From assembly GCA_050186175.1 (NCBI GenBank), contig JBFWYS010000030.1:1-15005 (forward strand): DNA of 15,005 nt, given 5' to 3'. How positions within the stretch are numbered: position 1 is the stretch's first letter; each line of letters starts with the position of its first letter. This DNA is from Pseudobdellovibrionaceae bacterium (lineage in GTDB: Bacteria > Bdellovibrionota > Bdellovibrionia > Bdellovibrionales > Bdellovibrionaceae). A program made the position numbers and the translations under genes. Positions 14,076-15,005 of this stretch are shown piece after piece. The notes under the pieces were generated by a model. It searched no databases and had not been told where the DNA came from. It worked only from the letters and a program-made list of their open reading frames with translations.

Positions 14076-14369
14076 TTACATTTCCTCATCTTTTTCGTAT
14101 AATAGACGAATGGCCTCACAAATCAATGCCGACTTGTCTGTTTTTTGATTAGAGAGCAGTCTTCTAGTGTAAATTTCATTGAGCATTCTGTACTCTGATT
14201 CAGGAAAATAAACAGTAGTTCTTATTTTGTTAATGTTTTGATGTTTTAATGTTTTAGCGTCTACATGTTGATCTTTACTTCGATTGTTTTGACGCTTTAA
14301 CGTTTCGACACCTGAATCTTCTTTTTTCATGTCAGTTCTGTTTTGAACACCTAGATGATTTTCATACAT
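14076..14369 (-). CDS. ribbon-helix-helix (CopG/ParG/Arc-like) DNA-binding protein with a disordered basic N-terminal tail
   Basis: The C-terminal 45 aa, KIRTTVYFPESEYRMLNEIYTRRLLSNQKTDKSALICEAIRLLYEK, fit the beta-strand, helix, helix RHH pattern (TVYFPE..., SALICEAIR). The Lys/Gln/Asn-rich N-terminal region contains short repeats (ETLKRQNN / KTLKHQNIN) and resembles ParG-type partition or antitoxin proteins. TAA stop. Confidence 0.6.
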   Translation of the reverse strand: MYENHLGVQNRTDMKKEDSGVETLKRQNNRSKDQHVDAKTLKHQNINKIRTTVYFPESEYRMLNEIYTRRLLSNQKTDKSALICEAIRLLYEKDEEM

Positions 14370-14376
14370 TTACTCA

Positions 14377-14405
14377 AATATAGCAATTATTAACCAAATT
14401 GACAA
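14377..14405 (-). promoter_or_regulatory. sigma-70-like promoter for the RHH gene (minus strand: TTGTCA - 17 nt - TATATT), giving a leaderless or near-leaderless mRNA
   Basis: On the minus strand, TTGTCA is the reverse complement of 14400..14405 and TATATT is the reverse complement of 14377..14382, with an exact 17-nt spacer. The -10 ends only 7 nt before the ATG at 14369. Confidence 0.4.
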
Positions 14406-14548
14406 GGGTTATGATTAAGTTACTTATTTTTAGCTACTTTTGAAAGGAACAAAAGATTTAAGAAAAAAGAAGGGAAAACACCTTTTATCTATTTCTTTAA
14501 TATATTAGTAATCTAAAGACTATAAGGAGCTAGGTTTCATAGAGGTTA

Positions 14549-14680
14549 GTGCGACAAAATGTGACAGAATGTGCGACAAAATGTGACAGCAAATGCGACA
14601 CAAAACTCCTATTATGCGACAAAATGTGACAGAATGTGCGACAAAATGTGACAAGTTGCGACAAAATGTGACAAGTCGCA
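14549..14680 (+). repeat. Array of six iteron-like direct repeats (core GCGACAAAATGTGACA) at 20-22 bp centre-to-centre spacing, preceded by an AT-rich stretch (14370..14548)
   Basis: Core copies start at 14551, 14573, 14595 (degenerate: GCGACACAAAACTCCT), 14616, 14638 and 14658. The last unit is closed by GTCGC, the inverse of GCGAC. The spacing equals two helical turns. This is the classical iteron or RHH-operator architecture. Confidence 0.75.
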
Positions 14681-14878
14681 TTAGAAACCTCTAAAGAAAA
14701 GGAGCTTATTCGTTGAAGGGAAAAAGTTCTGGATTTTGATTTGGTTTTTCATTAACTTAGAAAAAAGGTTTGCATATGGTGTGTTGTGTTTAACAAAGAA
14801 AGCAAAAAAGATCAAAGACCAACTCAAATTGGATTGCATTCAGTTTCGAATTTTCTTGGGAAAAGAAAACATAAAGAA

Positions 14879-15005
14879 ATGTTCGAAAGTCATCATGAGC
14901 AGTTTTGCAAAGAATATGTGGTAAAAATAAGAGACAACATACAGAGATTTGGTATTGACCTTACAGACATTCAAATGAGAGTAGTCGAAGGAGTTTTGCA
15001 GGGCT
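14879..15005 (+). CDS. 5' end of a gene running off the right edge (frame open from 14756; first ATG at 14879), possibly a Rep_3-type replication initiator
   Basis: The reading frame is open to the window end, and the translation is MFESHHEQFCKEYVVKIRDNIQRFGIDLTDIQMRVVEGVLQG. The stretch DNIQRFGIDLTDIQMRVV loosely matches the Rep_3 N-terminal pattern SN.LIEA.Y.LTL.EQRL.L. It sits directly downstream of the iterons. The overlapping alternative ORF 14736..14924 cannot be excluded. Confidence 0.3.
   Translation, partial: MFESHHEQFCKEYVVKIRDNIQRFGIDLTDIQMRVVEGVLQG

Follow-up and report, generated by a model that had tools for sequence, protein, structure and literature searches.

Probable iteron-controlled origin and start of a Pgp2-family initiator gene from a plasmid of an environmental Simkaniaceae-like chlamydia

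We analyzed a 15,005-nt stretch of contig JBFWYS010000030.1 (assembly GCA_050186175.1), the whole of which is called the window below. Its right-hand end, positions 14076 to 15005, contains a small gene on the minus strand, an AT-rich spacer, an array of direct repeats and the beginning of a gene that runs off the window edge. A previous reading of the letters without database searches (the sequence-only reading) had taken this order for an iteron-type plasmid origin followed by the start of a replication protein (Rep) gene. This was borne out, as the downstream gene encodes an initiator of the Pgp2 family. We consider it likely that the region comprises the vegetative origin of replication (oriV) and the beginning of the initiator gene of a theta-type plasmid replicon under iteron control, from an environmental Simkaniaceae-like chlamydia. 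An iteron-type origin with a Pgp2-family Rep is an already known kind of system, recognised only recently; new in this replicon are the longer initiator, the rep-adjacent iterons and a clade-specific accessory gene. The following features were located.

14076..14330, minus strand: small gene for a putative ribbon-helix-helix (RHH) DNA-binding protein of 84 residues (open reading frame, ORF, and 16 homologues)
14377..14405, minus strand: promoter-like site of the small gene, TTGTCA-17-TATATT with TG extension (consensus scan, 10 of 12 positions)
14370..14548, no strand: AT-rich spacer (26% GC against 37% for the window)
14484-14526, no strand: candidate DNA-unwinding element TTTATCTATTTCTTTAATATATTAGTAATCTAAAGACTATAAG (conserved and least stable block, right part of the spacer)
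14497-14526, plus strand: possible rightward promoter TTAATA-18-TATAAG inside the AT block (promoter function putative)
14549..14680, plus strand: iteron array, five full 16-mers and a conserved half-iteron, period 20-22 bp
14721..14742, plus strand: conserved block AAAAAGTTCTGGATTTTGATTT, right of the iterons and left of the Rep start codon
14786..15005, plus strand: start of the Rep gene, the first 73 codons of a 506-residue Pgp2-family initiator (GTG start; the window edge cuts the gene)

The 16-mer GCGACAAAATGTGACA is present in five exact copies, all on the plus strand, at 14551-14566, 14573-14588, 14616-14631, 14638-14653 and 14658-14673. The same five matches were the only ones in the 15 kb when up to three mismatches were allowed; the expectation from 200 shuffles was 0.10 +/- 0.31 matches, and none of the shuffles reached five. 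The unit at 14595 (GCGACAcaaaactcct) agrees with the full iteron at 9 of 16 positions; it is a half-iteron in which GCGACA (14595-14600) is kept, and the next 15 bp form a spacer without repeat sequence. Alignment placed this half-iteron at the same position in five relatives. The phased array of the sequence-only reading is thus real, although what had been counted as six direct repeats is five full units and one conserved half unit. Units start 22, 22, 21, 22 and 20 bp apart, and Tandem Repeats Finder (TRF) reported a period of 22 with 5.8 copies. Iteron replicons carry at least three direct repeats in helical phase (17-22 bp), and 16-mers spaced by 20-22 bp are of this kind.

Homologous loci from other contigs are given below by number (L003 and so on). 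The layout of two full iterons, the half-iteron and three full iterons is common to the window, L012, L003, L036 and L014, and the array is expanded in L009: the copy number is 5.5 in the window, L012 and L003 and about 11 in L009. The iteron sequence itself is identical among close relatives. A constant sequence with a changing copy number is typical iteron behaviour. The inverted GTCGC that had been seen to close the array is present at 14675-14679 together with a flanking inverted repeat (TAGAGGTT/AACCTCTA). Both are absent from L003 and L009, so that this closure is probably not essential; its candidacy as an operator for Rep dimers was rejected as a general feature for the same lack of conservation.

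To the right of the array an open frame extends from 14756 as far as the window edge; its start, GTG 14786, aligns with an ATG in L036. A word-indexed protein search with the 73-residue fragment gave no match, and the gene was identified via metagenome contigs carrying the neighbouring small gene. On contigs with homologues of the small gene, that gene is followed by about 460-540 bp of intergenic DNA and then by a divergent gene of 506 codons. Beyond the window edge we used L012 as a stand-in (94% DNA identity to window positions 13417-15005), because the Logan contigs that carry the window's own sequence end within the iterons. The window fragment is identical at 72 of 73 residues to P0019, which is complete in L012:3032-4552; L012 and all close relatives have an intact Rep ORF.

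Searches of Pfam, NCBIfam and PDB sequences with the 506-residue protein produced no meaningful match. Neither the window fragment nor a full-length homologue matched Rep_3 (PF01051), even at E <=1. Homology was found instead to Pgp2 of chlamydial plasmids: a tblastn search against plasmids matched 116 Chlamydia and Chlamydiifrater 7.5-kb plasmids at the gene annotated pGP2-D (24-27% identity, E 4e-9 to 1e-6), and a profile of 63 homologues aligned by hhalign with C. muridarum Pgp2 at 98.7% probability and E 4e-16 over 265 columns, residues 47-328 against 38-337 of Pgp2. The predicted structure of the initiator resembles RepE, pi and RctB. RepE complexes were at the top of the Foldseek results (E 4.6e-3 at best), interleaved with generic winged-helix proteins. 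The resemblance to Rep_3 initiators that had been noted for the N-terminus is therefore at the level of fold only, and by sequence the protein is not a Rep_3 member; what adjoins the iterons is a gene for a winged-helix initiator.

Compared with Chlamydiaceae Pgp2, the protein has about 170 extra C-terminal residues, with a domain at approximately residues 345-450. When this part was compared with PHROG families, 21 of 22 diverse members matched 'DnaD-like helicase loader' (best E 4e-8) and 15 of 22 matched 'replisome organizer'; 'replication initiation O-like' was also matched. No match to the domain was found in Pfam or among PDB sequences. The PHROG matches are independent support for a replication function, and the sequence similarity suggests that this is a helicase-recruitment domain. 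In this domain the initiator is like the lambda O-like and DnaD-like helicase-loader proteins, and phage initiators also bind repeated origin sites, with the origin often inside or beside their own gene. The N-terminal module, in contrast, is Pgp2-like and the gene context plasmid-like (parA, tra); no phage genes were found in the window or in its relatives.

The occurrence of the repeats in other genomes was analyzed with TRF and a motif search at 17 genome-collection loci encoding homologues and at the metagenome loci. The metagenome-assembled genomes (MAGs) to which the loci belong are labelled Simkaniaceae, Parachlamydiaceae, Waddliaceae and others. The homologues in the 17 loci are 31-74% identical, and those carrying a related core 43-57%. 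Of the 17 loci, 14 have an array of 20-23-bp period no more than about 2.2 kb from the gene. In 12 the core is related to that of the window, consisting of [G/T]C[G/A]ACA, 3-4 nt and TGTGA (with the variants TGCGA, TCCGA and TGTCA), and this core stands beside Pgp2-like genes across Simkaniaceae, Parachlamydiaceae and Waddliaceae MAGs. The array is upstream of the gene in L022, L023, L024, L027, L029 and L030, directly downstream in L019, L020, L026 and L032, and 1-2 kb downstream in L021 and L025; both orientations occur. In three loci (L023:1531-2290, L024:5208-5843 and L030:5083-5832) the iterons are contained within higher-order repeats (139, 77 and 89 bp long), with about 10-18 iteron copies in 600-750 bp.

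These positions bear on the possibility that the array is a plain transcription-factor operator which regulates the downstream gene and takes no part in replication, an alternative that the sequence-only reading had kept. The near-palindrome TGTGACA in the iteron core and the location of the array about 105 bp upstream of the start codon could be explained in this way. Rep proteins, moreover, commonly autoregulate via such sites, and a regulatory role may coexist with origin function. A promoter-proximal operator is nevertheless incompatible with the many relatives whose array follows the gene, by as much as about 2 kb, or runs in the opposite direction, and the gene product is an initiator homologue rather than a metabolic or regulatory protein. 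Arrays also follow the Rep gene in loci without the RHH gene. We regard an operator without replication function as extremely improbable.

The distribution of the small gene differs from that of the array. A six-frame search with the small-protein profile detected it only in the close clade (Rep identity of 79% or more) and, as a distant homologue, in L030. In L014 (Rep 72% identical) the array is present and the small gene absent; L035 has a 62-residue homologue of the small protein with neither a Rep gene nor an array nearby. As arrays mostly occur without the small gene, the repeats go with the initiator and not with the RHH-like protein. This is relevant to a rival proposal in which the divergent RHH protein binds the array in the manner of ParG or omega, either as a centromere, a reading also raised before, or as an operator, so that the module serves partition or global repression. 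RHH centromere-binding proteins bind arrays of short direct repeats, the small RHH-like gene adjoins the array, and its product combines an RHH-like pattern with a disordered basic N-terminal tail, as ParG and omega do. The minus strand of the iteron also holds TGTCACA, which we take to be one mismatch from the omega heptad. The repeats, however, are 16-mers at 22-bp phasing and not contiguous 7-bp heptads; related arrays stand beside a Rep gene without an RHH homologue in L014, L019-L027 and L029; and L035 presents the converse case. The RHH gene shares no operon with a parA gene; in the relatives, ParA is encoded elsewhere with a partner of its own of 90-91 residues. We consider binding of the array by the RHH protein, for partition or for global repression, very unlikely.

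The ParA partner is encoded just after parA (L003:7684-7959 and L014:11583-11855) and has a basic disordered tail followed by an RHH-like pattern (IKLTATITQSEWDYLQ...). Like ParG, it probably binds a centromere. A paralogous relationship of the 91-residue partner to the small protein was considered and rejected, as no similarity was detectable.

The preferred interpretation, an origin recognised by the Pgp2-family initiator, invites comparison with the 7.5-kb virulence plasmid of Chlamydiaceae, in which Pgp2 was assigned as the replication initiator in 2025 by Wan et al. (PMC11895440). That proposal rests on predicted structure and one deletion mutant (PMC11895440). The two systems share a homologous initiator, direct repeats of about 22-bp period beside an AT-rich tract, and chlamydial hosts; the window's array agrees with the presence, in the Pgp2 family, of tandem repeats of about 22 bp on the replicon that encodes the initiator. 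The 22-mers of Chlamydiaceae plasmids, four in number (TGCAACTCTTGGTGGTAGAC and variants), adjoin a TA-rich tract and are located between pgp6 and pgp7; those compared here were L011:7436-7501, L038:1-90, L039:1602-1688 and L040:5187-5282. The link to the 22-bp repeats of chlamydial plasmids made in the sequence-only reading was therefore apt. GCRAC-N5-GTG is common to the Chlamydiaceae 22-mers and the environmental core, L021 having GCAACAAAATGTGAC; outside this motif the repeat sequences are different. Sharing of this motif is weakly suggestive of common descent, being a short match chosen after the fact.

There are also clear differences. The Chlamydiaceae 22-mers are located about 2.9 kb from pgp2, whereas the iterons of the window abut the rep gene. 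Chlamydiaceae Pgp2 has 353 residues and is without the DnaD/O-like C-terminal domain of the 506-residue initiator. The conserved 11-residue beta-hairpin of Pgp2, RYKTSRNKYEF, reported to be essential (PMC11895440), is missing here: its position coincides with a 9-column gap of the initiator family in the hhalign alignment, and where it is reported in Pgp2 the initiator model has a loop (124-130) between helices 117-123 and 131-146. Chlamydiaceae Pgp2 is co-transcribed with the DnaB-like helicase Pgp1, but no such helicase was seen in the relatives examined, and no helicase gene flanks rep in L003, L009, L012, L014 or L036. Finally, the replicon here is probably a large conjugative-type element and not a 7.5-kb plasmid.

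Iterons normally diversify into incompatibility groups. One joint reading of the comparison would be that the code by which Rep recognises iterons has been nearly frozen since the plasmid ancestor of the phylum and that the long form of the initiator is ancestral; we put this forward tentatively and consider it rather doubtful. If true, such a frozen code would be unusual for iterons and would provide the first concrete binding-site prediction for Pgp2. If the long form is ancestral, Chlamydiaceae Pgp2 may have lost the helicase-recruiting domain after its linkage to a plasmid-borne helicase. The comparative pattern is in any case independent, sequence-based support for the 2025 proposal of Pgp2 as the chlamydial plasmid initiator and names a candidate recognition sequence for it.

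Three loci differ in the extent of the match (L032:6001-7183, L033:6001-7184 and L034:170-1951). There only the Pgp2-like N-terminal part was matched, at 31-45% identity, and each has its own tandem array of 22 bp x 4-5 nearby. Their MAG labels are Spirosoma, Bacteroidota and Spirochaetota, so either the family reaches beyond Chlamydiae or the bins are contaminated.

The classical iteron plasmids (F with RepE, R6K with pi and pPS10 with RepA, all Rep_3) and RctB of Vibrio chromosome 2 differ from the present system in several respects. The initiator here has no detectable sequence similarity to Rep_3 and possesses an additional C-terminal domain. DnaA boxes and integration host factor (IHF) sites, which are common but not universal in iteron origins, could not be recognised here with E. 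coli consensus sequences. Nor is an inverted half-iteron operator conserved at the rep promoter, as the GTCGC closure is lineage-specific.

Non-coding conservation was read from an alignment of six relatives. The spacer of about 180 bp is very AT-rich, as had been claimed, yet it is not unique within the window in this respect: the 40 bp at 14485-14524 have 15% GC and rank fourth among the least stable 40-bp windows of the 15 kb by nearest-neighbour stability. The block TTTATCTATTTCTTTAATATATTA...TATAAG (14484-14526) is conserved across all six aligned relatives and is the best candidate for an unwinding element. The possible rightward promoter within it would put the iterons into the rep transcript, which would allow autorepression. 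Directly left of the array, TTTCATAGAG is conserved as well. To the right of the array, AAAAAGTTCTGGATTTTGATTT is nearly invariant across the six relatives, including L014 with 72% identity, and is probably a promoter or leader element of Rep.

From this arrangement we infer how the origin would work. Monomers of the 506-residue initiator would bind the 5.5 phased 16-bp iterons via an N-terminal tandem winged-helix module, and the resulting nucleoprotein array would melt the adjacent conserved AT-rich block at 14484-14526. The DnaD/lambda-O-like C-terminal domain would then recruit a helicase or helicase loader. As in other iteron plasmids, autorepression and handcuffing would set the copy number, which would depend on how many iterons there are and on where Rep binds, either across the rep promoter region or a little downstream of it. 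The divergent 84-residue RHH-like protein would not bind the iterons; as an accessory confined to the clade, it would most likely be a small repressor of its own promoter and perhaps of rep.

Several observations count against the assignment as a working plasmid origin. Even for Chlamydia Pgp2 the binding of iterons has been inferred. The initiator has no match to a Pfam Rep family, and a consensus scan that included 14721-14742 gave no convincing rep promoter of sigma-70 type. Neither a DnaA box (TTATCCACA, up to one mismatch) nor an IHF site (WATCAANNNNTTR) was found in 14331-14785, the consensus sequences used being those of E. coli only. The GC skew, proposed earlier as a check, has its minimum in the window at about 14000-14500, which would fit an origin there, but is equivocal, as the relatives are inconsistent and gene strand is a confounding factor; we dropped it as origin evidence. 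Because the window ends 220 bp into the gene, the integrity of this copy is judged from L012. The left 14 kb of the window are without plasmid hallmark genes.

Because of this last point an integrated or decayed copy has to be considered, that is, a relic in which the replicon is inserted in a chlamydial chromosome or is decaying and the iterons no longer fire. The left 14 kb contain accessory-type genes only, for Band 7, major facilitator superfamily (MFS), methyltransferase, cupin, ankyrin and HU proteins, with an MFS fragment and no housekeeping genes. Some homologues are on contigs of 127-230 kb, L036 is riddled with insertion sequence (IS) elements, and integration of plasmid genes into the chromosome is documented in Chlamydiae (PMC7846284). 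A tblastn search of plasmids with an accessory protein of the window (9832-11034) gave no match, which is uninformative as to plasmid or chromosome. On the other hand, five iterons are perfectly identical, the non-coding flanks are conserved in relatives from different samples, Rep is intact as described above, and parA and tra genes accompany the module in L003, L014 and L015. Together these indicate purifying selection on a working replicon, and we consider a relic unlikely.

The genes beside the module in L003, L014 and L015 include parA with its partner and those for F-type TraC, TraE, TraK, TrbI and TraL; in L009 and L036 there are IS elements, ERF and a second parA. The sequence-only reading would have given way to a simple operator had the downstream gene been an ordinary one in flanks devoid of plasmid genes; instead it encodes an initiator, and the relatives carry parA and F-type tra genes. 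The nearest named MAG match is to Simkaniaceae, at 74%. Our best guess is that the window derives from a marine chlamydia of Simkaniaceae-like type and is part of a large conjugative plasmid.

Genetic tools are essentially lacking for environmental chlamydiae (Simkania, Parachlamydia, Waddlia and relatives), and a shuttle vector requires just such a defined minimal replicon, made up of iterons, AT-rich block and rep gene. Beyond vector use and corroboration of Pgp2 as initiator, this is an ordinary iteron replicon that holds no conceptual surprise.

The small gene is monocistronic, divergent from the Rep gene and convergent with a gene for an HU-family protein. A longer form of 97 residues is possible (ORF 14076-14369, ATG 14369). 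The start is probably ATG 14330, because most of the 16 homologues have 84 residues; ATG 14369 is missing from L003 and L009. The promoter-like site ends 7 nt before ATG 14369, so the near-consensus leaderless promoter described earlier stands as to its match and, for the 97-residue form, its geometry. The -35 element lies within AAATTGACAAG, which is conserved in the window, L012, L003, L009 and L036. The total number of promoter-like sites in the region is not above that in shuffles.

An ORF for a minus-strand RHH protein thus exists as claimed, and its assignment to this fold is plausible on sub-threshold evidence. In the AlphaFold2 model (monomer, predicted local confidence, pLDDT, 65) residues 1-35 are disordered and are followed by an extended segment and helices 44-58 and 66-83. 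Behind the disordered tail, the last 50 residues, which are conserved (TTVYFPESEYRMLNEIY...KSALICEAIRLLY), fit a beta-alpha-alpha pattern. Pfam RHH_3 was matched weakly by 5 of 17 members (best E 0.027), RHH_1 and MetJ by one member each, and RHH_3 by 3 of 100 distant relatives from a library of 1.8 billion proteins (best E 1.4e-4). CopG aligned in register at E 0.01-0.02 with a probability of 2-4%. Foldseek and PDB sequence searches with the small protein gave nothing significant, and ParG and omega sequences did not align with its profile. CopG (pMV158), ParG (TP228) and omega (pSM19035) resemble the protein in small size, disordered N-terminal tail, beta-alpha-alpha pattern and location near a replication region. 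The small gene differs from copG in lacking co-transcription with rep and from parG in lacking co-transcription with parA, and the similarity is sub-threshold. A role as a clade-specific repressor near the origin is plausible.

One neighbouring gene accompanies the module in other loci.

13719..13940, plus strand: gene for an HU-family DNA-binding protein (Pfam Bac_DNA_binding, E 9e-21)

It also neighbours the module in L010 and L012, and its product may be an architectural factor at the origin. The listed ORF has 73 codons and begins at profile position 17, so the true start may lie further upstream. The HU gene and a small upstream ORF (13453-13940) are 71.5% identical in DNA sequence to a cassette of the conjugative Simkania negevensis plasmid pSn. 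Identity of pSn with the present replicon was rejected, as only the HU cassette is common: genes at the RHH and Rep positions are unrelated and pSn has no tandem array.

Rfam and tRNA scans of the region and of the window returned nothing. Elsewhere in the window, a 176-residue MFS fragment (8809-9339) near a gene for a 402-residue MFS protein may be a pseudogene, and membrane-protein genes at 5572-7927 are unusually AT-rich, with 28-30% GC, and contain the least stable DNA of the window. Two adjacent ankyrin-repeat genes are present on the minus strand at 11716-12876; such genes are typical effector-like cargo of chlamydiae associated with amoebae or protists.

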